From a virus, in the IMG/VR virus record IMGVR_UViG_3300042317_001497: a stretch of DNA of 64,000 nucleotides; one strand, 5' to 3'. Under the pieces are notes generated by a model. It was not told the origin of the DNA. It saw only the letters and a program-made list of their open reading frames with translations, and did not search any database. Shown piece after piece: positions 8,378 through 25,381 of this stretch (the first letter of the stretch is position 1; the number at the start of each line of letters is the position of its first letter). The position numbers and the translations under genes are program-made.

Positions 8378-8384
8378 AACTTGA

Positions 8385-9492: not shown

Positions 9493-9522
9493 ACATCTGT
9501 ACGCTACTATACAAAAAATAGA

Positions 9523-9604: not shown

Positions 9605-9734
9605 GCAAGTTTTGACGCAAGTGCTGTGCCACAAAATATTTTCTCATTTGGCATGAAATTATATTTGAAATTTCTCAAGATTTTGCTTGAAAGCGTCGAA
9701 TATATCTGTATAATGAAAGCACAGGAGAAAAACG

Positions 9735-9908
9735 ATGGAAAAGATGATTGACGAAAACGGCGAAGAATGGGTCGTGGGTTATGGAGAGGATGACGTTATG
9801 GATTTCGACGATTATTCGTGGGATCCGATCATGGGTGATGCCGATGAGCACATCGAAACGGACGATGAGTGGCTGGACGATTTTCAGGGTGAAGAAGAAT
9901 TTGCTTGA
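9735..9908 (+). CDS. Very acidic microprotein (57 aa)
   Basis: Manual: MEKMIDENGEEWVVGYGEDDVMDFDDYSWDPIMGDADEHIETDDEWLDDFQGEEEFA*; AGGAG RBS. Confidence 0.65.
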   Translation: MEKMIDENGEEWVVGYGEDDVMDFDDYSWDPIMGDADEHIETDDEWLDDFQGEEEFA

Positions 9909-10157
9909 AAGGAAAATGGTATGCTAGGGGCTATCCTGTTCGTGCTTTCATACATTGGACTTTTTTACGTTTGCGTGACTTGCAAGGAATAAAAAGGTAT
10001 AAGAATGAAAAACTGGATCTGCTACAATTTGTTTGGTGAGCATCCCGATGATGTGGACGCTTTCGGAATGATTAGTGGCTTGGGTATTCAAGCGTTTCTA
10101 ATCGGTTGGGCCGTCTATCTTTTTGTTTACGTTCCCTTCTTTTACTTTGGATGAAAA

Positions 10158-10334
10158 ATGAATATCTCTCAACTAAGCAAATGTACAGTACAAACCGCTT
10201 TAAGGATTGAGCAAATTCGTTTGCAATATGCTTTGAGCGAATCGGATAAAGAAAATATTAAAAATAGTATTAAGGAATTGTGTGCTGAACTACTGTATAG
10301 GTGGAAAAACGAGTTGCAAAACCTTAGCCCATAA
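10158..10334 (+). CDS. Hypothetical protein (58 aa); stop codon lies inside element copy 4
   Basis: Manual translation MNISQLSK...ELQNLSP*. Confidence 0.55.
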   Translation: MNISQLSKCTVQTALRIEQIRLQYALSESDKENIKNSIKELCAELLYRWKNELQNLSP

Positions 10335-10396
10335 GGAGTTACGACAAATTTTCGCCGCAAAATTTTCCCTAAGTACTTATGTACCAATAACTTACG
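10315..10396. repeat. 82 bp element, copy 4
   Basis: tgcaaaacctt-agcccat-aaggagttacg / 24 nt / cctaagtactt-atgtacc-aataacttacg. Confidence 0.9.
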
Positions 10397-10559
10397 ATAA
10401 GTTTTGACGCATATCGTATGCCAAAGCAAAATATTCTTTTTTGGCACGATATTCGCTGTGAGAAACCTTACGACATTGTAAGGAAACTACCAAAGATTTC
10501 GCTTGAAACCCAAAGAAAACTCTGTATAATGTCGGTATAAGAAGAAAGAGAGAAAGAAA

Positions 10560-10889
10560 ATGAAAACCAAGTTCCCTATCGTCGAAAACGCCAAGCGTCA
10601 AGCCAGACTGTGCTTCCTCGGGATTGCGATTCCTCACCAACCGTCCCTTGCGGATGGGGTGTATGGCCCGATCCGTAGTGAGAAGGTGCTGAAGTTCAAT
10701 CGCAAAGCCCTAAAGAATCTGGGCAAGATTCGCAAGGAAAAGGCTGATCCCCGCCTTGTTGGGGGTGAGGATCGCATGATTGTAAAGGTTGGCAAGCCGG
10801 GTTCGGCCGAAAGGGTTGCTGCTCTGGAGTCGCAATATGCCGCGATTCTTGCTTGTGGAGAGGAAGTATCCCCCTTTTCGGAGGGGTGA
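10560..10889 (+). CDS. Hypothetical basic protein
   Basis: ORF track; promoter and purine-rich leader upstream. Confidence 0.7.
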   Translation: MKTKFPIVENAKRQARLCFLGIAIPHQPSLADGVYGPIRSEKVLKFNRKALKNLGKIRKEKADPRLVGGEDRMIVKVGKPGSAERVAALESQYAAILACGEEVSPFSEG

Positions 10890-10917
10890 TCTTCTGTACA
10901 CTGTACAAAAAACTCGA

Positions 10918-10999
10918 CGTAAAGCCTTGCAGCATAAGGACTTACGGCGAATTTTTGCGGCCGAGCTTGACGTAAGTACTTATATACCAACGACTTACG
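10918..10999. repeat. 82 bp element, copy 5
   Basis: cgtaaagcctt-gcagcat-aaggacttacg / 24 nt / cgtaagtactt-atatacc-aacgacttacg. Confidence 0.92.
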
Positions 11000-11173
11000 T
11001 TCAATGCTTATATATTAGGCGTTTCTGCCTATATTCTGATCACTAGCAAATCCTGTGCCAAACTTGCTTCTCCAACCTTACAGCATTGTAAGGAAACTTT
11101 TTCTGATCTAGGCTATTGACATTGGACGATAATACTGGTATAATGATAGCACAAGAAAGAAAGAGAGAGAAAG

Positions 11174-11851
11174 ATGAATAGCAATATGATTGCAAAAGAG
11201 TTGAAGAAGTTGGGCTATACGCTGAAGAAGACTTCGGACATCGAAGCCCGTTGGATGGTCAGTTCTGACGTTCTCACCTACCATTGGGATTTCAAGGATT
11301 TGAAGGGTGTTCAGCGGTTCATGACCGATGAGCGAGCGTTGTATCGATATGCCAAAGCGAACGGTGCGACCACCCGATAGTGGGGGTTGACGATCAGAAA
11401 AAACTTCGCTAGAATACCAACACAAGAAAGAGAGAACAGAATGATTCAGATTGGTGATAGGGTTCAGGTTGGTTCAAGGATTGGTGTTGATCTGGCGTGG
11501 GCTGTGGTGGTGAACATCCTGCCAGCAATCGGGGACAGGGTAGCTATGTATTGTGTTCGGTTCGATGCCACTACCTCGAAACTGAATGAGTGCTGGGTGG
11601 ATGAGGGTATTGTGTATGGTCCGTTTCTTGATCAAAACTTTGGATGGAATTGAAAGGCTATACAAATGTTCTCACCGATGGAAAAAATTTGGATGAGCCT
11701 TGGCTTGCAAGGTGCTTTGGAAATGATGGACGCATCATGTTCTCTGGCCGAAAGGCTCACGGAAGAATGCGTGACTAATCCGGCAGTGAAAGATGCTCTA
11801 ATTCGAAGCATTGCTGCTGAAATTATAGGCAGTCGCCAAAGTATCTCCTAA
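11174..11851 (+). CDS. Small hypothetical ORFs (11174-11380, 11441-11653, 11666-11851)
   Basis: ORF track; the last stop codon lies in the left arm of element copy 6. Confidence 0.6.
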
Positions 11852-11928
11852 GTGCTTGCTATATAAAGACTTACGACAAACGGGGCGCGCCGGGCTTGAT
11901 GTAAGTACTTACCCCATAAGACTTTACG
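11847..11928. repeat. 82 bp element, copy 6
   Basis: cctaagtgctt-gctatat-aaagacttacg / 24 nt / tgtaagtactt-accccat-aagactttacg. Confidence 0.9.
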
Positions 11929-12084
11929 ACAACTTAGCAAATGGTGTGCCAAACCTCCACGAAATTACGAAAAGTTTTGTCAAAATCTTTTGACAATAAA
12001 ATTTCTGGATTTCTCTTGAAAGCTCAAGATGAGCATGGTATAATGTCGATATAAGAAGAAAGAAGAAAAGAAAGAGAGAAAAAA

Positions 12085-12246
12085 ATGGAATATCTGGATT
12101 ACGATCTGATGTCCGATTGCTGCGGTTCTGGTGTGGGCTTTCAAACCGGTGAGGGTGAGGACCGAATCGGAATTTGTATGGAGTGTCAAGACTGGTGTGG
12201 TGTGGTGGAAGATATTCCGGAAGATGAGGCCGCTAGTCTCAGCTAA
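12085..12246 (+). CDS. Acidic Cys-rich microprotein (53 aa)
   Basis: Manual: MEYLDYDLMSDCCGSG...GICMECQDWCGVVEDIPEDEAASLS*. Confidence 0.6.
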   Translation: MEYLDYDLMSDCCGSGVGFQTGEGEDRIGICMECQDWCGVVEDIPEDEAASLS

Positions 12247-12653
12247 TCCTGCGGATTTGGGCAAGCTGGGTATAGTCAGCAAGCTAGGGGAACCTTTCAA
12301 TATTGCAAGAAAATTTTCTAGTTGACAACTAAAGATTAGACTGTAGAATGTCGATATAAGAAGAAAGAGGAAAAAAGAAATGAAAACTTCACATCAAAAA
12401 GCTGTTGAAAGAATGGATCGGGAAACTAACCGTGCTATTAAACAGGTTAAGTTGTTGGAAAAACTCTATCTGGAAATGATGCAGAAGAAAGAGAAGGTTG
12501 GTAAATGACCACTATTATTATCATAAACGCTTGGATTTTTACCATCCTTGCTATGTATGCTTTTGCTAACGTGGCTTTCTGGTTGTTTGCTCAGGCTTTT
12601 GGTGTTGTTGATAATTATCTGCAAAATCAGTATTGGAAGAATAAGGAATAAAA

Positions 12654-12884
12654 ATGATTACTGTTGAACAAATTAGAGAATTGACCGATACTTACCTTGA
12701 GGGTTGTGAGGTTACTATTACCCGTTCGGGTTGTGGTTGGTCTACCCCTTGTGGTTGGCAAGTTTCTATTATTAGTGATATTCCCGGCGATCAGCATACA
12801 ATTTATTTGCGTGATGATAATACTGTGGATTCTGCTTGGTCTAAGATTACTACTCTTGCGGATAATGCTTTGAACCCCGCATAA
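12654..12884 (+). CDS. Hypothetical protein
   Basis: ORF track; AAGGA RBS. Confidence 0.6.
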   Translation: MITVEQIRELTDTYLEGCEVTITRSGCGWSTPCGWQVSIISDIPGDQHTIYLRDDNTVDSAWSKITTLADNALNPA

Positions 12885-13090
12885 TTAAAGAAAGGCGACA
12901 CGGATGGTCGATATTAACTGGGTGCAAATAGGTGTGGGATTTATTGCTGGCGTGTTGTGTTCTTGGTTTGTTTCTGATTTGGTTTTTTATGTAAGGAATA
13001 GTGAGGATAGCCATGATTAATTCGGATTCTATTATTCTGACCATTTCTTTTGTGGCTGGTTGCTTGGTTGCTTGGATTGTAAATTCTTAA

Positions 13091-13172
13091 CGCAAACCCT
13101 TGCCCTATAAAGACTTAGGGCAAACCGGGGCGGCCCCGCGAATCGTAACTCCTTTGATAGCATAGACTTACG
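13091..13172. repeat. 82 bp element, copy 7
   Basis: cgcaaaccctt-gccctat-aaagacttagg / 24 nt / cgtaactcctt-tgatagc-atagacttacg. Confidence 0.9.
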
Positions 13173-13320
13173 ACAAGCATTGACGCAAAAGCTGTGCCAC
13201 AAAAATATTTCCCGTTTGGCACAGAATTATATTTGAAAAATTCCAAAGATTTCGCTTGCATTGGCCGATAAACACTGTAGAATGACAGCATCACAAGGGA
13301 AACCACTAAGGGAAATACCA

Positions 13321-14043
13321 ATGCTTCACGATTTTGATGAAATCAATCTGATTCTGGCCGGTATGGTGGACGAGGGAATTGTTGAGCCGATTGACGATCC
13401 TAGCGTGGAAGTTGATTTTTGGGATTGGGCCGACATTGTTGGGGTTGTGGACGAGTGTGTACCGGAAGAGTATTCGGACAACCTTTCAATCTAGAAAGAT
13501 TCAAGAAAAGGTATTTGACAAGCCGATAATAGTAGTGTAGGATAGAGTGAAAGAAAGAGAAGGTGAATGATGAGTCGATATGATAACTGGAATGATGATG
13601 ACGATTCGGATGACGGCTATGATGCTGCTCGTGACGCTTACCTGACCGGCGAAGGTCCGGCTGTTACTCGTAGCCAAAGGCAAGAGGAAGAGGATTTGCG
13701 AGAAGAGTATCGCCGGAATCGGTGGTAGTCTCTTGACAAGCTAAGTTTTTTTGATAGACTGTGACCATAAGAAAGGAAAAGAAACATGAGCCATCCTGAT
13801 CCCCTTTACGATTTTGATAATTCTTATGATGATGATGCTGTTTTCTATGGAGAAGATAGTTCAAGCTATCATCCCGATGCGGAACATGAGGTTGAAAGTA
13901 ATTTTGATGATGAAGAAGATTTGGAGGACGAGGAGTATGATTCTTACAATGATAGCATGGATGGGGATTTTGATTCAGCCATGCGTGATGCGGGATTCGG
14001 AACGGATGAAGATTACGGTTACTACGGTGGAGAAGACTACTAA
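13321..14043 (+). CDS. Three acidic microproteins (13321-13494, 13567-13728, 13786-14043)
   Basis: D/E-rich translations, each with its own promoter-like TTGACA/TTGCAT element upstream. Confidence 0.65.
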
Positions 14044-14891
14044 TGAAATGCCGATTCTTTGATATTGTTGTGGAAAATGAAAATGGTGAACAGCCGATTT
14101 CGAGCGAGTATGTTCTAGACTTGCCGGAACATAACATGACAGATGCTGTTGACCGACAAGAGTTTCTTGGTATCATGTTTGATACTGTTGTGGCCGCTAG
14201 TGGCTTGAATGTTTGTTCTTTTAGTTCAGAGGAGATTGGAATATGAAATGTGTTGTAACTCATACCGATACTTTCGGTGGTGAAGCTAATTATGGTTGGG
14301 TGAAGCGTTGGGAGTTTGTTCCCAAGAATGACTCTCAGCGTAGCGTAACATATCATGCTAAGAAACTGGCTGGCATGACGGGCGTTAAGAGTGATACTTA
14401 TGATTTTGGCGATGGCTTTACAATTAAGCCTAGGGGTTATGCTCAAGTTATATTTGTAGACTTTGAATAATAACAGAAAGGATATTGATATGTATTATCG
14501 TAAGATTGCTACTGGTATGATTGAGTCTACATATGAAAATTATAAGGATTGGAAAAAGAATCACGAACTTTTCCATGAACTTAATAAATATAATACTTTT
14601 ATTCCGGTATGGAGAGATCTGAGCGATAATACTAAGTGTGCTGCGATTGAATATGTATATAATAATCGTGATACTCTAGAGTTACATTCTGGGATTGTTG
14701 AATCTTGGGTTCAGGCAACAGCATACTTTATGTTATTTGATTTTACTGCTATGTTGTTGCATAATGACGAAGAGCCAGAATTGGAAATCTTTTTTGATGA
14801 TCTAGATTTTATGATGGATGAGGAAACTCTAGAAGATAGTGATGTGCAGGAGATTTTGGGTATTAGCCCAGATTTTACGGGCAAATTCTGA
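14043..14891 (+). CDS. Coupled hypothetical ORFs (14043-14246, 14243-14470, 14463-14891)
   Basis: Overlapping stop/start codons; 14243-14470 carries HTDTFGGEANYGWV. Confidence 0.65.
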
Positions 14892-14899
14892 GAATCCGC

Positions 14900-14981
14900 T
14901 CTAAACCCTTGGTACATAAGTACTTAGGGCGAGCGGGGCCGCAAAAATTTGACGTAACTCTTTATGTATCAACACTTTACA
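14900..14981. repeat. 82 bp element, copy 8
   Basis: tctaaaccctt-ggtacat-aagtacttagg / 24 nt / cgtaactcttt-atgtatc-aacactttaca. Confidence 0.9.
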
Positions 14982-15064
14982 TCTAAAAAAAATTTTCTCA
15001 AGATTCCCTCTTGCATTGGTCGATAATAGATGGTAGAATGACAATACGAAAGAAGGGGTGAAAC

Positions 15065-15328
15065 ATGAGTCCTGACGGAACCTATAACGGCTATGCGAAC
15101 TACCAAACGTGGAACGTATGCCTTTGGATTAGCAATGATGAAGGTCTGAACGAATTTGCGACCGTGTGTCAAAATTATAAAGATTTCATGGCTAGGCTTA
15201 GAGAAATGGATATAGACTCGCCTATTGCTTATGAAACGCCCGATGGTGTGTCGTGGAATGATAGTGCGGTCAACCTTGCGGAAATGCAAGAGTATTGGAA
15301 AGAAAATTTTGTTCAAGTTGGGGCTTGA
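15065..15328 (+). CDS. Conserved-type phage protein (YNGYANYQTWNVCLWISND motif)
   Basis: Motif typical of a phage/plasmid hypothetical family; promoter upstream. Confidence 0.7.
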   Translation: MSPDGTYNGYANYQTWNVCLWISNDEGLNEFATVCQNYKDFMARLREMDIDSPIAYETPDGVSWNDSAVNLAEMQEYWKENFVQVGA

Positions 15329-15393
15329 CAAATGTCGATAATAGTTGTAGAATGCTGAGAGTTGAACGGTTGTTTTCTAACGAAAGGGTTGAT

Positions 15394-15795
15394 ATGGATA
15401 ATTTGTTTGTGATCGGCGGTCTTCTTACTGCTGCTGTTGTTGCTGGTTTTCTGTTCTATGCTGTCTATGGCGGTTCTAGAACTAGCCTTGCTAGTGCTGT
15501 TGAGGGTCAGGTTTTCAACTTTACCTACGAGCAGCCACTGCATGGAACTCATGAGCGATTCCTTGCTAAAGTGATCGGTAAGCAGACGCTTACTGCTGAT
15601 CAAATTCGCAAGCTGAATAGCAAGAGTCGGTATCGTGCTAATGATCCCAATTTCATTCGCACGAACCATCTGGTAACTTGTCGCACGTTCGACGGCAAGG
15701 TGCGTAACTTCTATGCAGAGCGTGTGACTAATTGTCGCAAGCCTCTGCTGGCTGGTACGCTGTTTACCAGCAAGGTTGCTAGCCTGCTGTTCTAG
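15394..15795 (+). CDS. Membrane-anchored hypothetical protein, possible WYL/Sm-like C-terminal fold
   Basis: N-terminal TM helix; GKVRNFYAERV loosely resembles the WYL R-x-F-x-x-x-R motif (inference). Confidence 0.5.
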   Translation: MDNLFVIGGLLTAAVVAGFLFYAVYGGSRTSLASAVEGQVFNFTYEQPLHGTHERFLAKVIGKQTLTADQIRKLNSKSRYRANDPNFIRTNHLVTCRTFDGKVRNFYAERVTNCRKPLLAGTLFTSKVASLLF

Positions 15796-15825
15796 TAGCA
15801 GCTTCTGCCCAAAGAATGCCCAACT

Positions 15826-15907
15826 CCTAACCCTTTGACACCAAAGGACTTAGGACGCGGGCGGGCGGCCCGTTTCGTCGTAAGTCTTTATATATCAACA
15901 CTTTACG
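15826..15907. repeat. 82 bp element, copy 9
   Basis: cctaacccttt-gacacca-aaggacttagg / 24 nt / cgtaagtcttt-atatatc-aacactttacg. Confidence 0.9.
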
Positions 15908-15988
15908 ACAATCTTTTTCGCTCAAGCTTTTCCTCTTGACAGGCCGATAATAGTAGTGTAGAATACAGGGAATCAAAAGGAGAAAAAG

Positions 15989-16889
15989 ATGCTGTTTACG
16001 CCATATGCTTTGACGGATAAGGTAACTCGCAAGGTTAGTGATGAGGGTATGATTGAGTTTAGTGGGCTGTCGGTTGGGGGTCGTCATTTTTCCATAGTCA
16101 CTCGACTTGACGATGCTAACCGCTGGGTCAACGGAGAGTTGATTCAAAATGCTTTCCCGTATCTTGGTGCGGATGATCGTGAGATTCTCAAAACGGGAAT
16201 TGATGCTCAGGGTTGGGAAGAAATGTTCCCAGAATCGGAGGAGGAGGAAGTATGAATACCGATACTTATATGGTTATGAGAGGATATAAACTTTTGGGTT
16301 ATGTTGAGGCCCAGAGTACCTATCATGCTATTAGATTAGCGGAAAAGTACTATGGGGATAATATCATCGTGGAAAGAATCACGCATAACTGTCCCGCCTA
16401 ACCCTGCCGGGTTGGTTGAGTGGGTATAGTCAGCCAGTAGTCGGGGCTTGACAAAAGGTTTTTAATAGAGTATATTGAGCAGAAAGGGAGAGAATTATGT
16501 TGACAACTGAAGAACGAGATGCTGTTTCTGATTGTGTGAGAAATTTTGCCATTTGTCTGATAAATGCTACCACTGTTGATGAGCAAGCTGTGCATACTGA
16601 AATGGATACTTTCTTTGAGTTCTTTTGTAAGGCTCTTGAGATTGCCAGAACTGATGGTATCGTTAGAGTTCGTGAGTCTATTGGGGCTAGTAATAACTAA
16701 GGGGATACCATGAGAGTTTGTCCATGTGGGTCTGGCAAGAAAAGTTGGTGGGAAAGTGATGCTAGGGGAATTCCACTGGGTAGGGTTTGTTTGGAGTGTT
16801 TAGATAAAAAGTTGAGTAAGTATCGACCGGAAGTGTTGACCAACTCCAACTACTACGCCGACGAGCCTATTGAGGCCGAGGACTATTAG
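15989..16889 (+). CDS. Small hypothetical ORFs (15989-16255, 16252-16401, 16497-16700, 16710-16889)
   Basis: ORF track and manual translation; 16710-16889 starts MRVCPCGSGKK (SEC-C-like motif). Confidence 0.62.
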
Positions 16890-16890
16890 T

Positions 16891-16972
16891 CGTAAGTCCT
16901 TATCCTTAAAGCACTTAGGGATAGGGCGAGCGGCCGAAATCGACGTAAGTCCTTACCTCTAAACGATTTGCG
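16891..16972. repeat. 82 bp element, copy 10
   Basis: cgtaagtcctt-atcctta-aagcacttagg / 24 nt / cgtaagtcctt-acctcta-aacgatttgcg. Confidence 0.92.
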
Positions 16973-17034
16973 TCTAAAAAGATTTTTTCAAGAAATACTC
17001 TTGACAAGACGATAATAGATGGTAGAATGATTGA

Positions 17035-17642
17035 AGAACAAGTGAAAACTTGTTGGTTGTGTCGGGCCGAGCAGCCGGTAAAAACGGTAGTTGATGTCCT
17101 AGGAAACGTCTTCTACAATCGGTCCTAACAATACAAATCAGTCAGAAGTATAATCGTAAAGTAAGAGAGGCCCGTGTTGACACGGATAACCTAGCGTAGT
17201 ATACTCTGACTGACAAACATCCGTGGGTCCATGCTCAAGGGACTAGATAGGGATAAGCCATTACGATAAACCTACCGGCACATTGAAATAGAAATACCGG
17301 TGGGGTTGACAGCGGGCTTATACGCTGTATAGTAGTGCCTATCTATGTGGGATTGCGTCCAGACCACGGCCAATACAATCCGGTATTATCCTTCATCGGG
17401 TAATAGAGTGAATTAACACCGCAACATTACGCTTGCGTTCTATCTTTCATCGGGTAGAATCACTGAAATAACAGCCGGATACCGAACAACCAGTAACCGT
17501 CGCCAAGAGCCAGACCAGAGTGGGTCTTATGTGCTAGCAATGCCCGCTTTGCAGGGAGGATTTCCGTGGACGGTTTACACAATGTCCGTAACAGGGTAGC
17601 ACGGTGAGCAAGAATCGGGGCGTAAAAGATTCGCTGGTTTTT
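17035..17642 (+). ncRNA. Large (~600 nt) structured noncoding RNA candidate
   Basis: No credible ORF; strong promoter TTGACA(17001)...TAGAAT(17023); many local and long-range helices; ends in a hairpin plus T tract. Confidence 0.72.
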
Positions 17643-17693
17643 AATACTTGACAGATAGAGAATAGATAGTAGAATGGTGGAAAAGGAGAAAAA

Positions 17694-18847
17694 ATGAGTC
17701 TTTTAGATGTGTTGCTGAGTGAAAACACTGAACGCCTGCCTACTTTCAACGAGTTGAAAAAGATTTTACTAGCAGTTTGTCCTAATGGGCAAATTGAATG
17801 GGATAATAATAATCAGATTATTTTTTATACTAACTTGACCGATAACGAAGACGGAACACTCAGGGAGTTTGAATGATGACTGTATCCGAACTGATTGAGC
17901 AGTTGAAGAATTACCCGTCCGATATGAGAATTCTTACCCTTGGATATGAGGGTGGGTATAATGATGTGGACCTCAAGACTGAGGATATTGTTTTTAATTT
18001 TTCCAAGAATGATACTTGGTATTATGGGCCTCATGAATGTGTGAAGTTTACCGATGGGGATACTGGTACAAAGTGCTTGGTTGTTGTGAGGACTAAATAA
18101 TGAACTGGCATTATGGACAACCTATTGTAAATGGATCATATATTTGTTGTATAACAGGTTATTCTTCTCCTATTGATCTTATTTGGAATAAAGAAGAGGG
18201 TGGCTGGGGCGATTGGTGGCACGGTGAATATGACGATGGTTTAGCCGAATGGAATCAGTTTGACAATGATCTAGTGGTATGCTATATTGGTTTTGATGAG
18301 ATTCCTATGCCGGAGAATTGGTGATGGAATGGTTTAACTCTCATAAGAATCCGCCTGCTGTTGGGCAGAAGGTCTATTACTTTGGTCCCAATATTGGATT
18401 GTTTATTGGTCATTATTCATATGAAGAACGATCATTTGAAACATACTCCTATAATGAATATAATCAAAAGGTGGTGGATAAGGTATTAAGTATTTGTCCA
18501 CACGTTTTTACTAATATGAGTTTTGGGGTATGTGATGCTTGTGACGCTCCGTTCTGGCTTCCATATGATGAGGAACGAGCAAAGAGTTGGTGTCCCATTA
18601 TCCCAGAAGAATATACTCAGGGGTTGTATGACTAATGGCTAAAAACTTTAAAGATTTGCATACCATAGATGCTAAAGATATGACTCGTGATCAGGCTATG
18701 ATTTATGTTATTAACTTTTTTAACTCTCGTATGGCAACAATGAGCAATGCTCACAGAAATAAGGTTAAAGAGTTAATTGGTATTCATGAGATTGCTACTA
18801 GTGAACTAGTTAATAAATATCTGGAGTTAGTTCTTGAAAACTCTTAG
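17694..18847 (+). CDS. Coupled small hypothetical ORFs (17694-17876, 17873-18100, 18100-18324, 18318-18635, 18635-18847)
   Basis: ORF track; consecutive stop/start overlaps. Confidence 0.65.
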
Positions 18848-18848
18848 A

Positions 18849-18930
18849 TGCAACTTCTGACAGCATAAGGACTTAGGAGAAATCCGGCGGGCGAAATTTG
18901 TTGTAAGTACTTGACCGCAAAAGACTTACG
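18849..18930. repeat. 82 bp element, copy 11
   Basis: tgcaacttctg-acagcat-aaggacttagg / 24 nt / tgtaagtactt-gaccgca-aaagacttacg. Confidence 0.88.
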
Positions 18931-19174
18931 TTCAAAAATATTTTTTAAAGACTTCTCTTGACATTTGCCGATAATAGAAGTATACTTAAATCAAGACGAT
19001 AGATGAGGGCCGCTGGCAGAATGATATCAAAGAAGCCACGGTTAAATGCAAAGCCGAGTATGGCATAACCCAATCTATTTGTCTTGCCTAATCCTACGGA
19101 TTTGGTGGTCTTGGCGATAGTCAGCGAGAATACGGGGTCTTGACAAGATCGTTTCTATAAGGTATAGTATAAGC

Positions 19175-19600
19175 ATGAAACAGAACAAACTACATGGCGA
19201 AGTTCGATTTCACCTGAGTAATGGCCAGCATTATATGCACTGGCAAATAAAGGTTAAGCAGGGTGGGGAAACAGTTGATGTATATTACGTTGACCCCAAA
19301 AAATATCAGTTAGAGATGCGGGGTTGTAAGTTGTGGAATAGGCCGAATAAGGCTAAACAGGTGTTTGAGGCTGGTGTACATGATGTGAGTGGATGGGTGC
19401 GATGTGAAGAAGTTATGCTAAGAAAAGATTTTCATCCAGCTTTGCCAGTTGACAATCTTGAGAAGTTATACTACAATCCGTTGAGAGATCCGCACTGGCG
19501 ACGAGAAAGTGATAGTAACGAATTCATTTGGGATGGTAGCGAGTATGCTACTCTCTTGACTAACGGTAAACAAGTTTATATTTTGGAGGAGAGAGAATGA
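19175..19600 (+). CDS. Hypothetical protein
   Basis: ORF track; promoter upstream. Confidence 0.7.
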   Translation: MKQNKLHGEVRFHLSNGQHYMHWQIKVKQGGETVDVYYVDPKKYQLEMRGCKLWNRPNKAKQVFEAGVHDVSGWVRCEEVMLRKDFHPALPVDNLEKLYYNPLRDPHWRRESDSNEFIWDGSEYATLLTNGKQVYILEERE

Positions 19601-19971
19601 TTAAGGTTGAACTGGGTGTTCGTGAGGCTCTTACCATGATTTCTAATGGTTGCAGTCTGGATATGTTCGAGAAGATTGTTTGCTCACTGGAAGTGGCACT
19701 GGGTGTGAACCAGCGTTGTATGGTGACAATCACCGGAGGTATGAATCTGGATAATCGCATCCCTTGCATCAAGGCGATTCGGATTGCTACTGGCTGGGGT
19801 TTGAAGGAAGGTAAGGAGTGGACCGATGGTATGGTGGGTGGCTGGAAGTATGATAGGTTCGTGCCTGCTACCCCAAACACCAAGCAGAGCATCACCCTAA
19901 AATCGCCCGAACTGGCTGAGAAGTTGCTGCGTGATCTGGTTGGGCTGGGTTGTGAGGGCTTTCTCTCTTGA
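19597..19971 (+). CDS. Protein with ribosomal L7/L12 C-terminal-like domain
   Basis: NRIPCIKAIRIATGWGLKEGKEWTD matches the L12 CTD pattern K-I-x-x-IK-x-x-R-x-x-TG-x-GLKEAK. Confidence 0.7.
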   Translation: MIKVELGVREALTMISNGCSLDMFEKIVCSLEVALGVNQRCMVTITGGMNLDNRIPCIKAIRIATGWGLKEGKEWTDGMVGGWKYDRFVPATPNTKQSITLKSPELAEKLLRDLVGLGCEGFLS

Positions 19972-20053
19972 CCTAAAGCCTTGTCTCTAAAGAACTTAGA
20001 GCAAGGCGGGCCGGCCAAATTTGACGTAACTCCTTATGCTTCAATAACTTAGA
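19972..20053. repeat. 82 bp element, copy 12
   Basis: cctaaagcctt-gtctcta-aagaacttaga / 24 nt / cgtaactcctt-atgcttc-aataacttaga. Confidence 0.9.
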
Positions 20054-20255
20054 ACAAATCATGAGAATACCAAAAAATCATTCATGCAAACACCTTGACG
20101 ATGACGATACTATATGGTAGAATGATAGCATCACACGACAAGACGCTGGTTGAACCCGAAAACACAAAGTTTCGACCTAGCCCTTGACAAGTGATAATGT
20201 TGGATGTATAATTGGTTTACTTGGTTCGATAACACTTTTGGAAAGGTTTTTTACA

Positions 20256-20507
20256 ATGAAGAAGTTTAGCTTTGTGGTTGATGTGGTTGCGGATGAGCTT
20301 GATCGTGACGGCGTTGTGGATTCGATTCGTTCTTGCCTGAGCGATAGCCTCCCTGGCGATGTTCATGCGAATGTCAAGGCTGGCGAGGTCAAGGCTTTTT
20401 CGGAGCAGGGTTATAAGGTCTGGCGTGCTAGGGTCACGGGCGTGACTGCGGAGCAGGCCGGTGATGCCCACTCTGGTAAGGTTGAGAAGGAAACAGTCGA
20501 GGCTTGA
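20256..20507 (+). CDS. Hypothetical protein
   Basis: ATG at 20256 after GGAAAGG; ORF track frame. Confidence 0.65.
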   Translation: MKKFSFVVDVVADELDRDGVVDSIRSCLSDSLPGDVHANVKAGEVKAFSEQGYKVWRARVTGVTAEQAGDAHSGKVEKETVEA

Positions 20508-20554
20508 TCTTGACAAACTGGACTATGCCAGTATAAATAGATTTTAGGCATAGT

Positions 20555-20725
20555 GCGGCGGGATTCGTCCCGCGTAATGATGTGGGCTCAGACCCACCTA
20601 GCAGAGTCTAACCAACTAATAACCGGCGTGGTTGCCGGGAAGGGGTCTGCTGCTAGTAATATAACGATGGTAAAGTGATCCCACCATCAAACCGTATAGC
20701 CTCTATGGGACGCCATAGGGGCTTG
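20555..20725 (+). ncRNA. Small structured RNA candidate (five consecutive stems)
   Basis: Hairpins at 20558-20573, 20582-20597, 20598-20656 (nested 20623-20638), 20667-20690, 20699-20722; no ORF. Confidence 0.45.
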
Positions 20726-20759
20726 CGGCATTGAGTGGATATGGTATAATAGATGGCAC

Positions 20760-20831
20760 GGCCCCATAGTTAAATGGATATAATAAGTGACTTCTAATCT
20801 CTAGTTGCAGGTTCGATTCCTGCTGGGGCTA
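20760..20831 (+). tRNA. tRNA-Arg(TCT)
   Basis: Acceptor GGCCCCA/TGGGGCT, loop CTTCTAA, T-loop TTCGATT. Confidence 0.88.
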
Positions 20832-20835
20832 TTAT

Positions 20836-20909
20836 GGGGGCGTAGATCAATTGGTTAGATCGCTAGCTTGTCACGCTAGAGGTTGCGGGTTCGAGTCCCG
20901 TCGCTCTCG
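20836..20909 (+). tRNA. tRNA-Asp(GTC)
   Basis: Stem CTAGC/GCTAG, loop TTGTCAC, GGTTCGAG, G73. Confidence 0.9.
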
Positions 20910-20990
20910 CTAAGTTGTTGGTATATAAAGACTTAGATCAAATCCGGGCGGCCCCGTTTGCCGTAAGTCCTTATGCCACAAGCCTTTGCA
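20909..20990. repeat. 82 bp element, copy 13 (abuts the tRNA-Asp 3' end)
   Basis: gctaagttgtt-ggtatat-aaagacttaga / 24 nt / cgtaagtcctt-atgccac-aagcctttgca. Confidence 0.9.
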
Positions 20991-21066
20991 TCAAAAAATA
21001 ATTTCTTCAAGAATTGGTCTTGACTAGCCGATAATATAGTGTAGAATCGGTAGACAAGGGAGAATA

Positions 21067-21780
21067 ATGATGAAAACTGCAAATGGTAATGATAAGTTGG
21101 GTAAGGAAAATTGTATTGTGGTTTCGCGTCCGGTTGGCGATAGTTGTCCGTCCGATTGTGATTTTCTCGGTAACGGATGCTATGCAGAAGATTTGGAAAA
21201 TATCTATCCCGGTGTTCGTCCTGCCGGTATGCAAAATCTTGTTACAGAAAAGAATAGTATTCGCTCCATGCTGGTGGATGCCGTCAAGAAAAATAAAGAT
21301 GTTCGCTGGCATGAGCGTGGCGACTTTTTCAAGTATGGTGAACTTGACAATGAATATGTTGATAATGTATTGTGGGCCTGTGAGAATATTCTTGCCAGTG
21401 GTGGTAGTCTGCCGACCATGTGGGCTTATACCCATATTTATGACACTAGATTGTCTATGGAACTTGGCAAGTATATCAATATGTATGCTAGTATCCATGA
21501 TGGTGAAGATATGAAACAGGCTAAGGCTGCTGGTTTCAAACTGTTCGCATGGTGTGATAGTGATACTAAAATTGCCCCTAAGCGTCCGCGTGGTAAGAAT
21601 AAGGTTGCAGCATGGCGATCAGCACTGCCGAAACTAGTTGTGCTGGAAGGTGAAAAGTTTGTCACTTGCCCGGAAATTCGTCGTGGTCGTGGAGTTGTCA
21701 CTTGCACAAAAACCAAAAATAGCGTACACTGTGACTTGTGCGTTCGTGGTTTGGCTAATGTTTTGTTTCCTGCACACTAA
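21067..21780 (+). CDS. Gp88-like Cys-rich phage protein
   Basis: N-x-KL...SC-x3-C-x5-CYA...VRWHERGDF...WAYTH and C-terminal C..C..C; pattern of the gene product 88-like family. Confidence 0.6.
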   Translation: MMKTANGNDKLGKENCIVVSRPVGDSCPSDCDFLGNGCYAEDLENIYPGVRPAGMQNLVTEKNSIRSMLVDAVKKNKDVRWHERGDFFKYGELDNEYVDNVLWACENILASGGSLPTMWAYTHIYDTRLSMELGKYINMYASIHDGEDMKQAKAAGFKLFAWCDSDTKIAPKRPRGKNKVAAWRSALPKLVVLEGEKFVTCPEIRRGRGVVTCTKTKNSVHCDLCVRGLANVLFPAH

Positions 21781-21791
21781 GGAGTTTAATA

Positions 21792-22028
21792 ATGTCTAAA
21801 TATTATATCAAGTGTGGTACTCTGGAACTAATTTACTCTACAGATAAAAGTTCTGTTGAAGCGGCGGTTACAAGTTTGTTTGAGAGTAATAAGTTTGATA
21901 CATTAGATGAATACTTCTATATTGATGAGCGTGGTTTTAGAGACTATCTAACTGCTGATAAGCAAACGGAAGTTTTGAAACTGAATGTAATCGCAAAGAT
22001 GGGTGGATGGACGCTAGGTAACGACTAA
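21792..22028 (+). CDS. Hypothetical protein
   Basis: ORF track; AAGGAG RBS. Confidence 0.65.
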   Translation: MSKYYIKCGTLELIYSTDKSSVEAAVTSLFESNKFDTLDEYFYIDERGFRDYLTADKQTEVLKLNVIAKMGGWTLGND

Positions 22029-22035
22029 AACTAAC

Positions 22036-22117
22036 CGCAAACCCTTACTGCATAAGCACTTAGGGCGAGCGGGGCCGGCCAAATTTGACGTAAGTGCAAT
22101 GGCCTCAACCACTTAGG
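22036..22117. repeat. 82 bp element, copy 14
   Basis: cgcaaaccctt-actgcat-aagcacttagg / 24 nt / cgtaagtgcaa-tggcctc-aaccacttagg. Confidence 0.88.
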
Positions 22118-22185
22118 ATTTTTTAAAGAAAAGGTTGACAAGTGCCGATAACTATGATATGATTAAACGGAAAGGATGGGACAGC

Positions 22186-22542
22186 GTGATCCAATGGATT
22201 GGGGTACTGATTGCTCTGTTAGGTTTGGCATATACTGGCGTTAAAGATTATCAAAAAGGTGATTTAAAAATTCCAAAAATACCATCTAGACAAAAGATTG
22301 TGTATCCTATACAATACTGTCTAATGGCTTATGATCCTAACATAGACAAAGTTTTTTATTTACACGACAATGGAATATGGCATGACTATGCACCACCTCA
22401 ACGACGATATTCGCCCACGACGCAACCACAACAAAATCAAGGTCAAGGTCAAGAAGCCTTGGGAGTTGTCAACGGGACACAAGGAACATCGGGATACCGT
22501 TATGGACAATCGCCCCAAGCGGTTGCGAACCCGATCCGCTGA
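22186..22542 (+). CDS. Membrane-anchored hypothetical protein (GTG start)
   Basis: TM helix IQWIGVLIALLGLAYTG; Q/G-rich C-terminus overlaps the next ORF. Confidence 0.55.
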   Translation: MIQWIGVLIALLGLAYTGVKDYQKGDLKIPKIPSRQKIVYPIQYCLMAYDPNIDKVFYLHDNGIWHDYAPPQRRYSPTTQPQQNQGQGQEALGVVNGTQGTSGYRYGQSPQAVANPIR

Positions 22543-22576
22543 AAAGCGTCGGGCTTGCGAGGATTATCACTATTGA
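22370..22576 (+). CDS. Small basic protein overlapping the previous ORF in another frame
   Basis: KIKVKVKKPWELSTGHKEHRDTVMDNRPKRLRTR; composition looks protein-like. Confidence 0.5.
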   Translation: MEYGMTMHHLNDDIRPRRNHNKIKVKVKKPWELSTGHKEHRDTVMDNRPKRLRTRSAEKRRACEDYHY

Positions 22577-22592
22577 TTATAATAGGTAGATT

Positions 22593-22663
22593 GCCCGCAT
22601 AGTATAATGGTAATACAGTTGATTTGTAATCATCTAATACTAGTTCGATTCTAGTTGTGGGCT
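22593..22663 (+). tRNA. tRNA-Thr(TGT)
   Basis: GCCCGCA/TGTGGGC, loop TTTGTAA. Confidence 0.82.
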
Positions 22664-22664
22664 C

Positions 22665-22735
22665 TCCGGGATGGTGTAACAGTAGCACAGAACACTTTGG
22701 ATGTTCTTGTCTAGGGGCGGAACCTAGTCCCGGAA
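22665..22735 (+). tRNA. tRNA-Gln(TTG) with atypical T-loop GGCGGAA
   Basis: TCCGGGA/TCCCGGA, stem GAACA/TGTTC, loop CTTTGGA. Confidence 0.78.
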
Positions 22736-22739
22736 TTTT

Positions 22740-22811
22740 ACGAAGGTAGCATAATGGTAGTGCCGCAAACTGTTAATTTGCTCTGTGTAGGTTCGACTCC
22801 TACCCTTCGTG
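22740..22811 (+). tRNA. tRNA-Asn(GTT)
   Basis: ACGAAGG/CCTTCGT, loop CTGTTAA. Confidence 0.88.
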
Positions 22812-22814
22812 CTT

Positions 22815-22899
22815 GGCTGGATGGCAGAGTGGTCTAATGCACCGGTTTACTAAACCGACGAGGAGAAATCCTCCACAAGTTCGAATCTTGTTCCAGCCG
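22815..22899 (+). tRNA. tRNA-Ser(ACT), A34 anticodon
   Basis: GGCTGGA/TCCAGCC, G73, long variable arm GAGGAGAAATCCTC, loop TTACTAA. Confidence 0.82.
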
Positions 22900-22903
22900 C
22901 TTA

Positions 22904-22985
22904 GGTAGATTACTCAAGCGGACAACGAGGGCAGACTGTAAATCTGCTGGCATTGCCTTCGCTGGTTCGAATCCAGCATCTACCA
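22904..22985 (+). tRNA. tRNA-Tyr(GTA)
   Basis: GGTAGAT/ATCTACC, stem GCAGA/TCTGC, loop CTGTAAA, variable arm. Confidence 0.9.
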
Positions 22986-23066
22986 CTAAGTTGTTGGTAT
23001 ATAAAGACTTAGAGCAAATTCAGCGGGCCGTTTTTGACGTAAGTGCTTATCAGATAACGACTTAGG
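22985..23066. repeat. 82 bp element, copy 15 (abuts the tRNA-Tyr 3' end)
   Basis: actaagttgtt-ggtatat-aaagacttaga / 24 nt / cgtaagtgctt-atcagat-aacgacttagg. Confidence 0.9.
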
Positions 23067-23123
23067 ATTTTCTAAAGACAGGACTTGACTCTTGCCGATA
23101 AGTAGAGTATGATTGAAAGACAC

Positions 23124-23199
23124 GGGGCGTAAGGTAAGCCGGTTGCATCCGTCACTCTTATAAGGTGATCATAGGTACGTTCGACTCGTACACGCCCTA
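23124..23199 (+). tRNA. tRNA-Ile(TAT)
   Basis: GGGGCGT/ACGCCCT, stem TCACT/GGTGA, loop CTTATAA, GTTCGA. Confidence 0.75.
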
Positions 23200-23239
23200 C
23201 TTTTAAGCTTCGGAGGCTGACGTTTGAGTTGCGATGGCT

Positions 23240-23311
23240 GGCCCCATAGTCTAACGGCTAGGACGACAGCCTTTCACGCTGTAGATCGGAGTTCGATTCT
23301 CCGTGGGGTCA
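23240..23311 (+). tRNA. tRNA-Glu(TTC)
   Basis: GGCCCCA/TGGGGTC, loop CTTTCAC. Confidence 0.9.
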
Positions 23312-23351
23312 CTTGACAAATAAAAAAAGAATGGTATACTAGAAAACCCTT

Positions 23352-23424
23352 GGGGGTGTAACTTAGCGACTAAAGTAGCGGTCTTTTAAACCGTTTATCG
23401 TGGGTTTGAGTCCCACCGCCCCCA
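23352..23424 (+). tRNA. tRNA-Lys(TTT)
   Basis: GGGGGTG/CGCCCCC, loop CTTTTAA. Confidence 0.85.
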
Positions 23425-23478
23425 CTTGACAAGTATGTTTGGTTGGTGTATAATGTTGGAAAGAAAGGAAGGTTGATT

Positions 23479-23649
23479 ATGCGTTATAGTGATGATTACG
23501 AACAGTATGATTATGACTATGATGAATTGGTAGAAAATGCCGATGATCTTGGTCTAGATGAAGAACCTTGGATGGATGAAGAAGAAGATGACGAGGTTCC
23601 TTCTTATGGAAAGAATTATTATCCTGACATAACAGAAGACGATTGCTAA
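23479..23649 (+). CDS. Very acidic microprotein (56 aa)
   Basis: MRYSDDYEQYDYDYDELVENADDLGLDEEPWMDEEEDDE... Confidence 0.65.
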   Translation: MRYSDDYEQYDYDYDELVENADDLGLDEEPWMDEEEDDEVPSYGKNYYPDITEDDC

Positions 23650-23654
23650 TTTTT

Positions 23655-23739
23655 GTGGATGCTTCTAGGTGGGACTAGACTCTTTTCTTTATCCTTTCTT
23701 TCTTTTCTTGAATAGCCGGTTCGAATCCGGCCATCCACA
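23655..23739 (+). pseudogene. tRNA-like element lacking an anticodon arm
   Basis: Acceptor GTGGATG/CATCCAC and T-arm GCCGG-TTCGAAT-CCGGC are intact; the middle is a pyrimidine tract. Confidence 0.55.
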
Positions 23740-23744
23740 CTTAT

Positions 23745-24254
23745 ATGAATGTTTTGAGCCAAAAGCCCGATGATTTTCGTCGTACTCCAGACGGTAAAGT
23801 TATTCAAGGTGCTAGCCACACTTGCCGTGTGCTAAATCATAAAGAGCGTAATAAGATTATTATTAAGGCTGTTTGTGATCTTAGGAAAATTAAGGATCAG
23901 TTTGATACTATAGCTTGTTGTGGCGTAAGTGGTTTGATGGTTGTTCCACAGATCGCTGAACTTCTAGATAAGCATATTTTAATTATTCGCAAAAATGAAA
24001 GATGCTACAGTGAATTTAGAACTGAGGGCGTTGCTCCTTTTCAATATGTGGTTGTTGATGATCTTGTTTGCTCTGGGGATACGATAAAGAGAATACAGAA
24101 TACTATTAAGGATGAATACCCAAGAGCAATTTGTAAGGGTATTTATTTCTATATTCCAGACCAGTGTGTTTATCGGCCAGACGAGGATGGCTCTAAACTA
24201 TGCTTGAGGGATCTAAAGGCCCCGCTCCTAAACCTAGGCCACCAAAAGACTTAG
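23745..24254 (+). CDS. Type I phosphoribosyltransferase-like protein
   Basis: PRPP-binding motif VVVDDLVCSGDT; CCGVSG loop; stop codon lies in element copy 16. Confidence 0.78.
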   Translation: MNVLSQKPDDFRRTPDGKVIQGASHTCRVLNHKERNKIIIKAVCDLRKIKDQFDTIACCGVSGLMVVPQIAELLDKHILIIRKNERCYSEFRTEGVAPFQYVVVDDLVCSGDTIKRIQNTIKDEYPRAICKGIYFYIPDQCVYRPDEDGSKLCLRDLKAPLLNLGHQKT

Positions 24255-24308
24255 GACGAACCGGGGCGGCCCCGCCCGACGTAAGTGCTTATATACCAAC
24301 GACTTGCG
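24227..24308. repeat. 82 bp element, copy 16
   Basis: cctaaacctag-gccacca-aaagacttagg / 24 nt / cgtaagtgctt-atatacc-aacgacttgcg. Confidence 0.9.
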
Positions 24309-24408
24309 TCACGAAATTTTTCCGCAAGTTTGCCCCTTGACACTGCCGATAATAGATGGTAGAATCAGCGTATCGGAACGAAGAATCAGTAACACGAAAG
24401 GGTTGATT

Positions 24409-25356
24409 ATGCCTGCTATGGTCGAAAAGATGATGTTTGTTGGTGCTACCCCTTGGCATGGTGAGGGTACGCAGCTCGATGAGAATCCCTCTATTTCTGA
24501 GGCGATTACCGCTGCTGGTCTGGATTGGGAAGTTGGTACGAAGCCGTTGTTTACGTCGGAAGGCGAGGAAGTCAACGCCAAGGCGACTTTCCGTAAGACC
24601 GATAATAGGGTGCTGGGAGTTGTGGGTCCGCGTTATACCCCTCTCCAGAATCAAGATGCTTTTGATTGGTTCCAGCCGTTTCTGGACGCTGGCGAGTGCC
24701 AACTGCACACCGCCGGTTCGCTCAGTGAGGGCGAGAAGGTTTGGGTGTTGGCTCAACTCAATCGTGCGAACAGCGAAATTGTTCCCGGCGATGAGGTGAG
24801 CAAGTTTATCCTGCTGAGTAACAGCCACGACGGTACAACGTCGATCCGCGTCGGATATACTCCGATCCGCGTGGTCTGCGTGAATACTCTCGCTGCTGCC
24901 CACTCCAACAAGGACAGCCAGTTGATTCGGATTCGTCACACACGCTCCAGCAAGACCAATCTGGATAACGTGCGAGACATCATGGATAATATCAACGTGC
25001 AGTTCGAGGCGACTGCGGAACAGTATAGGTTCCTCGCCTCTAAGGATTTCAATCAGAACGATATTCGTAAGTATGTCAAGATTCTGCTGGGGATTGATAA
25101 GACCCCGGACGAAGATATCAAGACTCGTACCCGCAATATCATGGATGAAATCTTGACGCTTGTGGAAGGCCCGAAGCAGAGTGCTACGAATGTTCGTGGA
25201 ACATGGTGGGCTGCCTATAATGGCTTCAATGAGTATCTGAACTATAGCAAGGGTCGCACGGTGAGCAATCGCCTCGACTCACTCTGGTTCGGACAGAATG
25301 GGGTTGATAACGTCAAGGCACTCAATACCGCAGTGGAGTTTGCGAACGCCGTCTGA
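24409..25356 (+). CDS. DUF932 (TIGR03299-like) phage/plasmid protein
   Basis: PWHGEG, LGVVGPRYTPLQN, TAGSLSEGEKVW, LLSNSHDG, TPIRVVCVNT, RIRHT, GTWWAAYN. Confidence 0.88.
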   Translation: MPAMVEKMMFVGATPWHGEGTQLDENPSISEAITAAGLDWEVGTKPLFTSEGEEVNAKATFRKTDNRVLGVVGPRYTPLQNQDAFDWFQPFLDAGECQLHTAGSLSEGEKVWVLAQLNRANSEIVPGDEVSKFILLSNSHDGTTSIRVGYTPIRVVCVNTLAAAHSNKDSQLIRIRHTRSSKTNLDNVRDIMDNINVQFEATAEQYRFLASKDFNQNDIRKYVKILLGIDKTPDEDIKTRTRNIMDEILTLVEGPKQSATNVRGTWWAAYNGFNEYLNYSKGRTVSNRLDSLWFGQNGVDNVKALNTAVEFANAV

Positions 25357-25381
25357 TCTTTTCGTGTCACGATGAAAAGGG

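Follow-up and report, generated by a model that had tools for sequence, protein, structure and literature searches.

The interval from 17035 to 17642 of the window, by which we mean the whole 64,000-nucleotide stretch of viral DNA analyzed here (IMG/VR record IMGVR_UViG_3300042317_001497), is a locus at which a T4-like freshwater phage encodes non-coding RNA; genes for rIIA, rIIB, DNA ligase and terminase were found in the same 64-kb window. The reading that we favor, and consider reasonably probable, is that the interval is transcribed early as a string of separately folding RNAs of the phage tRNA island, and that this string is matured into units which would serve as tRNA-like mimics and of which the 3′ unit would pair with itself. 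The string would consist of module A, a lineage-specific hairpin, a pseudoknotted 5′ unit, a twin-hairpin unit and the 3′ unit (Table 1), each closed by its own terminal helix and most separated from the next by (C)AAUACAA.

Table 1. Features of the RNA locus, in window coordinates
Feature	Position	Strand	Remarks
Promoter P1	17001-17028	+	TTGACA-N16-TAGAAT, TG-extended, 11/12 matches
Module A	17035-17137	+	optional structured 5′ unit; ends in CAAUACAAA
Lineage-specific hairpin	17138-17212	+	insert with P2; window, L111 and L185 only (among the matches listed)
Promoter P2	17177-17205	+	TTGACA-N17-TATACT; inside the lineage-specific hairpin
5′ unit	17213-17369	+	pseudoknotted, 157 nt here (~150 nt); gap-free four-way junction
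H1	17222-26/17364-68	+	closing helix of the 5′ unit
H2	17227-29/17241-43	+	5′ unit
H3	17244-51/17338-45	+	TAGATAGG/CCTATCTA; covariation-supported
Pseudoknot	17253-59 with 17315-21	+	ATAAGCC-GGCTTAT; covariation-supported
H4	17271-78/17297-17304	+	predicted, from sequence and single-sequence fold alone
H5	17310-14/17323-27	+	CAGCG/CGCTG hairpin; covariation-supported
H6	17346-51/17358-63	+	last hairpin of the 5′ unit
AAUACAA spacer	17372-17378	+	second copy 17130-17136; degenerate 17213-17219, 17483-17489
Twin-hairpin unit	17378-17480	+	closed by AUCCGG/CCGGAU, 17378-83/17475-80 (6 bp)
Twin TTCATCGGGTA hairpins	17384-17405, 17438-17459	+	UUCAUC loops
Middle hairpin of twin-hairpin unit	17420-17437	+	
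3′ unit	17486-17642	+	157 nt here (~115-190 nt)
H7	17488-94/17633-39	+	closing helix; 7 bp, invariant
H8	17495-17501/17569-75	+	one pair covaries
H9	17516-24/17543-51	+	variable hairpin with palindromic tip
Apical loop of H9	17532-17539	+	UGCUAGCA, self-complementary; candidate kissing-loop site
Variable hairpin of 3′ unit	~17578-17606	+	
H11	17612-16/17628-32	+	loop GGGGCGUAAAA; covaries
T tract	17638-17642	+	directly after the closing helix; promoter of the next gene at 17648-17675

On the + strand, the region 17027-17693 holds a single open reading frame of at least 30 amino acids (17027-17128, 33 amino acids), the ATG of which falls within the -10 hexamer of P1. This agrees with an earlier note on this DNA, made by eye, which had described an ORF-free stretch with its own promoter: the strong P1 precedes the interval. 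Further, the lengths of indels among homologues show no multiple-of-three pattern, and the variable columns of module A are distributed over the three codon phases as 9, 5 and 8, that is, without phase; the interval is therefore not coding. Three near-consensus promoter-like sites were seen in the interval (at 17001, 17177 and 17306). The third, at 17306-17333, was rejected as a conserved promoter, since relatives have TTGCCA and GATAGT there and the hairpin that it overlaps covaries. Transcription from P2 would start at ~17212, where family conservation begins. Of 139 family copies among the matches listed, 128 have a sigma-70-type promoter no more than 250 nt upstream, and 69 of those 128 resemble P2 in that 0-19 nt separate the end of the -10 element from the 5′ unit. 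We envisage that the + strand would be transcribed from two early-type sigma-70 promoters, P1 and P2.

At the other end, the T tract that had been noted after the 3′ domain is present, and ~60% of distinct copies have a T-run behind the 3′ unit; in the remaining copies a promoter, or a ribosome-binding site (RBS) and ATG, comes next. An RBS with ATG at most 45 nt after the 3′ unit was found in 49 of 132 distinct copies (the gap is ~20 nt in locus L041), an arrangement that would suit a long cis-acting leader, such as a 5′ UTR or an element like a riboswitch, with control over the gene that follows. However, the downstream ORFs come from at least eight unrelated families, many loci have no such ORF, another promoter follows at least 38 copies, and in the window the T tract and a separate promoter intervene before the next gene, so that we disfavor a leader as highly improbable. 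No conserved protein gene flanks the RNA across loci, and no Pfam family was found for the neighboring small ORFs.

We next relate the interval to known RNA families. The check proposed in the earlier note, a search of Rfam for GOLLD, ROOL, OLE, introns and RNase P, was run and gave no match, even permissively. At the gathering threshold, a search of the window returned no family in 17035-17642; nor was there a match at E ≤ 10 for 16850-17750 or at E ≤ 1 for five loci with minimal forms of the RNA. RNase P RNA, tmRNA, group I and II introns, 6S RNA and SRP RNA were likewise without an Rfam match in the interval or the minimal forms. As to whether the RNA is GOLLD, ROOL or something new, a choice that could not be made by eye, it belongs to neither of these nor to any other Rfam family, as judged by covariance-model matches. 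A blastn search of 16900-17700 against 50,697 phage records found no match, and neither ARAGORN nor the Rfam tRNA model (RF00005) called a tRNA in 17035-17642; ARAGORN also found none inside the long linkers of ten loci.

Homologues were nevertheless plentiful. A scan for the twin-loop motif gave 35 matches, seven of which were true relatives, the other 28 being rejected as unrelated coding tandem repeats. With further scans for a 3′ motif, two core anchors and a pattern of invariant positions, the total came to 74 viral contigs and at least 120 metagenome contigs. Profile searches placed the 3′ unit in at least 194 loci, the window included, and the 5′ unit in 164 of those. The homologues come from contigs of uncultured T4-like phages and from lake metagenomes. 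At least 123 of the copies are both unique and full-length; they measure 230-655 nt (median 345), the minimal forms being 230-310 nt long. One true copy (L087) comes from a Lake Lanier contig of 4.6 kb that carries the label of an Alphaproteobacteria MAG and is probably mis-binned phage DNA; a candidate in a Betaproteobacteria MAG (L086) was discarded as a chance match. No published description of these RNAs was found in databases or the literature. The survey of IMG/VR by Fremin et al. (2023) lists 8,495 candidate structured RNA motifs of 29-151 nt (PMC10690425); because those motifs do not exceed 151 nt, at most fragments of these RNAs could be listed there, and such fragments may be among them.

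The homologues supply strong evidence of structure. Forty full-length copies were aligned with MAFFT without regard to structure; on this alignment, an explicit nine-helix structure that includes the pseudoknot gave 97.4% standard pairs, compared with 32-42% when partners were slid by 1-3 columns. Both-sided changes occurred in 22 of 53 pairs (10 in shuffled and 3-6 in slid controls), and none of 500 shuffles reached the observed value on any of five measures. Similarly, across 120 distinct sequences of the 5′ unit, 96.6% of cells were paired against 38-42% in slid controls, and both-sided changes were present in 20 of 34 pairs, a result matched by 0 of 500 shuffles. Several G-U pairs are invariant or dominant (UG in 40 of 40, GU in 116 of 120); because near-constant G-U pairs would be A-C on the opposite strand, the RNA corresponds to the + strand. 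The single-sequence folding energy is modest (z = -2.2 for the + strand and -0.7 for the - strand, against shuffles), and the case therefore rests on covariation among homologues. Overall, the locus specifies RNA-level structure on the + strand, with a pseudoknot, as the earlier note had supposed when it called for homologues and covariation; both have now been obtained (40 full-length copies and 120 5′ units), and compensatory changes and one-strand G-U pairs identify a structured non-coding RNA of the + strand.

These results also bear on whether the interval acts at the DNA level, as a cluster of three promoters or as protein-binding or recombination sites without a functional RNA. The three near-consensus promoter-like sites inside the interval would accord with such a feature, as would an island dense in promoters and repeated elements. 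Yet the 17306-17333 site is not kept in relatives, where the overlapping hairpin covaries instead, the G-U pairs are maintained on one strand only, and compensatory changes occur at 20-22 helix positions. We consider a DNA-level feature the least credible explanation, even less so than a leader.

The 5′ unit, at the start of which family conservation sets in (17213), is built of H1, H2, H3 and H6 around the junction, and H3 encloses two hairpins and the pseudoknot. Both H3 and the H5 hairpin, with the pairing of ATAAGCC to the H5 loop GGCTTAT, had been read from the single sequence in the earlier note; they are present and show compensatory changes in the 40 and the 120 homologues. Four of the seven pseudoknot pairs covary among the 120 sequences, one pair being split between CG (67) and GC (52). 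H6 sits directly on H1, the same layout as that of H11 on H7 in the 3′ unit. A resemblance of AAGCC/GGCUU to P4 of RNase P was dismissed, since a G-C pair switches to C-G and there is no Rfam signal.

Upstream of the 5′ unit, module A is 93-98% identical in 38 loci among the matches listed, in 35 of which it lies directly upstream of the 5′ unit, and its consensus fold has a long-range helix that encloses three hairpins. Other loci have module A and the 5′ unit contiguous, without the 17138-17212 hairpin. L111 and L185, with which the window shares this hairpin, both come from 34,690-bp contigs, which are probably the same contig. Thus, the helix of 17138-17152 with 17200-17213, offered previously as a long-range helix, does pair (14 bp with one bulge) but is a lineage-specific feature and not a family-wide one. 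More generally, the helices described as long-range exist, but each lies within a single module.

We compared two readings of the locus, namely one two-domain RNA with a variable linker and separate small RNAs joined by a ACAAUACAA spacer. In L153, L173, L150, L084, L194 and L114 the 3′ unit was found alone, with a promoter of its own lying 6-12 nt ahead of it, and in L070, L088, L052 and L098 it follows a different unit, X. The 5′ unit runs directly into an RBS and gene, without a 3′ unit, in L238, L247, L250 and L251, and occurs in tandem in five loci (L001, 7344-7634 on the - strand; L036, 13087-13387 on the + strand; L124; L204; L095). A scan with a 5′-unit pattern, unbiased with respect to the 3′ unit, returned 72 loci, ~65 of them with enough downstream DNA; 59 of these evaluable 5′ units (~91%) were accompanied by a 3′ unit and two by a decayed remnant, the other four being L238, L247, L250 and L251. 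Where they are linked, the 5′ and 3′ units always occur in the same order. Covariation between units, sought as antiparallel runs of pairing columns, was not detected, as the runs were identical after random reassignment of the 3′ units. The (C)AAUACAA spacer was found after 76 of 108 distinct 5′-unit ends and ahead of 98 of 136 distinct 3′ units. Solitary 3′ units behind a promoter lack it, and it may be no more than a tail at the 3′ end of whichever unit comes before it. The idea that AATACAA punctuates the RNA genes of the phage in general was rejected, as it is neither enriched in the window nor found next to tRNAs.

Because units stand alone, occur in tandem and are swapped, and because of the lack of inter-unit covariation and the spacer statistics, the units are separable. 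The locus is modular, and its units are gained, lost, duplicated and swapped among related phages as independent evolutionary units. The proposal of a single ornate fold of ~600 nt was accordingly not borne out: the interval has five parts, and its 5′ and 3′ units also occur alone without covarying with each other. What does survive of that proposal is that the RNA is carried as its own module, here a promoter-driven unit in a phage tRNA island.

The 5′-3′ linkage and the fixed order also fit one two-domain RNA. On this account, the locus would encode one large multi-domain RNA of the GOLLD/ROOL kind, in which 5′ and 3′ domains frame an exchangeable linker and which forms kissing-loop dimers or larger RNA-only complexes. 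Besides the ~59 of 65 evaluable 5′ units with a 3′ unit in fixed order downstream, it can draw on the phage origin of the RNA and its place in a tRNA island, on a loop that switches between palindromes, and on the variable linker, at times T-arm-like (L048, L074 and L065), which parallels the ROOL linker and the tRNAs of the GOLLD linker (PMC12286853). It has difficulty with units that each also occur alone, with their own promoter or before a gene, with a 5′ unit that a different unit can replace, and with candidate inter-domain runs that stay identical when partners are permuted. Every unit, moreover, has its own closing helix, there is no Rfam match, and the minimal forms are just 230-310 nt. 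A single RNA is therefore, in our judgment, unlikely, and we prefer the string of separate units.

The place between the 5′ and 3′ units can be taken by at least six alternative, unrelated inserts, of which the twin-hairpin unit is one and all of which have a closing helix of their own. This linker ranges from 0 to ~360 nt, and 63 of 123 unique full-length copies among the matches listed have no insert at all. In keeping with what had been seen in the window, the twin hairpins sharing TTCATCGGGTA are conserved in 13 distinct versions of the unit, with compensated changes in all three of its hairpins. The UUCAUC loops of both twin hairpins are near-invariant (one CUCAUC among 13 versions) while the stems change, and this constancy suggests a sequence-specific partner. 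The loops might act as anticodon mimics or pair with a GAUGRR site; such a site was not seen by eye in the same RNA. Other inserts, in L048 (6466-6613), L074 (14021-14179) and L065 (13806-14025), carry a T-arm-like GGTTCGATTCC / GGGTTTGAATCCC and a hairpin with the palindrome UGAUCA in its loop of 7 nt, CUGAUCA; ARAGORN called no tRNA in these three inserts. Unit X, which takes the place of the 5′ unit (~145 nt; ~3534-3680 on the - strand of L070, ~3537-3679 on the + strand of L088, and in L052 and L098), is tRNA-shaped with a large internal domain, and has a 7-bp terminal stem ACGUAUG/CAUACGU, a GGGUUGGAUUCCC arm and a T-arm-like UCGGG-UUGGAUU-CCCGA. Locus L168 contains two complete 5′+3′ strings (3042-3315 and 4437-4749), 1.3 kb apart.

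The 3′ unit is closed by H7, which pairs in 88-100% of copies and never varies, so that it gives no covariation signal; the search patterns had contained part of it. H11, of 5 bp, abuts the 3′ strand of H7 with zero intervening bases in 123 of 127 copies, and in 135 distinct 3′ units four of its five pairs show at least three standard pair types, pairing in 99-100% of cells. The 11-nt H11 loop GGGGCGUAAAA (17617-17627) is the most conserved unpaired stretch, with CGUAAA near-invariant, and resembles the universal 16S rRNA segment GGGCGUAAAG. The 3′ domain had been thought to be closed by GTGCTA/TAGCAC and CCAG/CTGG: the latter pairing holds, as part of the 7-bp H7, whereas GTGCTA/TAGCAC is complementary in the window but was rejected as a family feature (loop-to-hairpin complementarity of 4.11 compared with 4.10 in shuffles). 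A small hairpin, GGGA/UUCC at 17554-17565, was also set aside, being only 77-87% paired.

The apical segment of H9 is self-complementary in most of the family. A palindrome of at least 6 nt is present in 59 of 74 distinct H9 apical segments, compared with 26 ± 4 in shuffled segments (maximum 39 in 1000 shuffles); a perfect palindrome is absent in the remaining 15. The palindrome is centered on the tip of H9 (relative position 0.53 ± 0.06), and nine central hexamers (GCUAGC, UCAUGA, UGAUCA, GGUACC, UCUAGA, UGCGCA, CCUAGG, CUAUAG and AUAUAU) occur on many stems, so that the loop switches from one palindrome to another between lineages; what distinguishes two close relatives is the change UCUAGA/CCUAGG, which is symmetric. 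Since most palindromes are flanked by non-complementary bases (e.g. GAG-UCAUGA-AC), they would not pair within their own loop. No conserved intramolecular partner for the loop was found across family copies, and the palindrome is kept in 8 of 11 copies that do not have the GTGCTA/TAGCAC partner hairpin and also in stand-alone 3′ units. Because the loop switches among palindromes and has no conserved intramolecular partner, two copies of the 3′ unit probably pair with each other, as far as can be judged from these sequences, by a kissing interaction of their palindromic loops. Kretsch et al. argued from palindrome switching that OLE and GOLLD form symmetric kissing loops between molecules, contacts that were seen by cryo-EM (PMC12286853). 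With such loops, the 3′ unit shares a self-complementary apical sequence of 6-8 nt that is palindromic across lineages and does not pair within its own loop. The retroviral dimerization initiation site (DIS) of HIV-1 is another symmetric kissing loop. The likeness to OLE L9.3, GOLLD L21a and the HIV-1 DIS is one of mechanism only, and dimerization of the window RNA is a prediction.

The 5′ and 3′ units could together form a self-assembling RNA scaffold of a new class, a dimer or larger assembly held by the palindromic loop with an exchangeable "cargo slot" in between; we rate this as rather improbable, a shade below the single large RNA, and a second symmetric contact that would permit cages was not found. 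If the scaffold reading were true, tRNA-shaped or other small RNA units would plug into the slot, and the locus would be comparable to the nanocages of GOLLD and ROOL, though smaller and modular.

The locus belongs to a tRNA island. Across the family, 75 of 90 loci of at least 8 kb contain tRNAs (mean 4.3), and all 466 of 466 are on the strand of the RNA. In the window, ten tRNA genes lie at 20.7-23.4 kb, within an island (8000-26000) of about 41-46% G+C in a genome of about 31-33%. Near-consensus sigma-70 promoters are dense in this island (52 found, 20 expected), which also contains, along with the tRNA genes and the 17035-17642 RNA, tiny ORFs, repeated 86-nt elements and a Pistol ribozyme. 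The ribozyme (RF02679, 20517-20579, + strand; 55.7 bits, gathering threshold 34.5) is just upstream of tRNA-Arg and tRNA-Asp. A tmRNA gene at 51079-51434 on the + strand (Rfam, 107 bits; ARAGORN tag GVNQLALAA) is ~28 kb from the tRNA island. ARAGORN also assigned 22815-22900 and 23124-23200 to a tRNA-Ser with anticodon ACU and a tRNA-Ile with anticodon UAU; an unmodified A34 in tRNA-Ser(ACU) would be unusual.

The closest parallels in setting are rnaC (species 1, 139 nt) and rnaD (species 2, 119 nt) of phage T4 (AF158101, 70908-71171), which are small structured RNAs of a T4-type phage. Both are co-oriented with the tRNA cluster, at its end behind tRNA-Arg, and are arranged head to tail and separated by short spacers; a tRNA-like T-arm is present in rnaC and also in some units of the family described here, and neither T4 RNA has an Rfam family. 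What is shared is thus the placement of small RNA genes within or beside a phage tRNA cluster, on the same strand. Homology was rejected, as nhmmer --max with both unit profiles gave no match to the T4 tRNA region containing rnaC and rnaD at E ≤ 10. The units of the window are, in contrast, larger, with a covarying pseudoknot in one and a palindromic loop in another, and they use the AAUACAA spacer and their own promoters, several kilobases from the tRNAs of the window. To our knowledge, few small stable RNAs of T4-type phage tRNA clusters were known before, and we know of no function established for them over some fifty years.

With GOLLD (RF01998) and ROOL (RF03087), the family shares its phage origin, its proximity to tRNA islands and conserved parts that frame a variable linker; the ROOL linker is variable and that of GOLLD holds tRNAs (PMC12286853). 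GOLLD also has palindrome-switching loops that point to symmetric kissing contacts (PMC12286853). The window string is, however, much smaller (units of ~150 nt, 230-655 nt as a whole), its parts occur independently, and its minimal forms of 230-310 nt fall short of a single integrated fold of >500 nt. With tRNA, tmRNA and RNA1 and RNA2 of phage T5, the units share a terminal helix of 6-7 bp and a hairpin of 5-6 bp adjoining it without an intervening base; the four-way junction of the 5′ unit has its arms in tRNA order, and the tRNA-island location is a further likeness. They differ from tRNA in that ARAGORN and Rfam do not recognize them, no CCA is encoded, the loops of the window copy are not canonical T-loops, and a pseudoknotted domain occupies the position of the anticodon arm.

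Under the string reading that we favor, the last hairpin of the 5′ and 3′ units would stack on the closing helix like a T-arm on an acceptor stem, and this acceptor/T-arm geometry is what tRNA-processing enzymes read. Host tRNA- or RNA-processing nucleases might then cut the units apart at the spacers, as in the precursors of T4 tRNAs, which are closely spaced, multimeric and matured by RNase P (PMC11143913). The 3′ unit would dimerize through its kissing loop. The weakest step, which we put forward tentatively and think doubtful at present, is that the units are stable tRNA-like mimics that engage host factors for tRNA handling or translation early in infection.

In kind, both the small stable RNAs of phage tRNA clusters and ornate phage RNAs that pair with themselves are already known. 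New are the present families, their pseudoknot set on a tRNA-like frame, a palindrome that switches, and units that are shuffled at a spacer they have in common. This adds at least two large, well-supported RNA families without a database entry, in at least 194 loci including the window, and their natural variation, with units present or absent, swapped inserts and nine palindromes, constitutes a ready-made mutational series for structural and genetic work. If the units assemble, they would add small natural examples to the newly recognized RNA-only assemblies; and if they mimic tRNA or assemble, they would bear on how phages manipulate host translation or tRNA-directed defenses.
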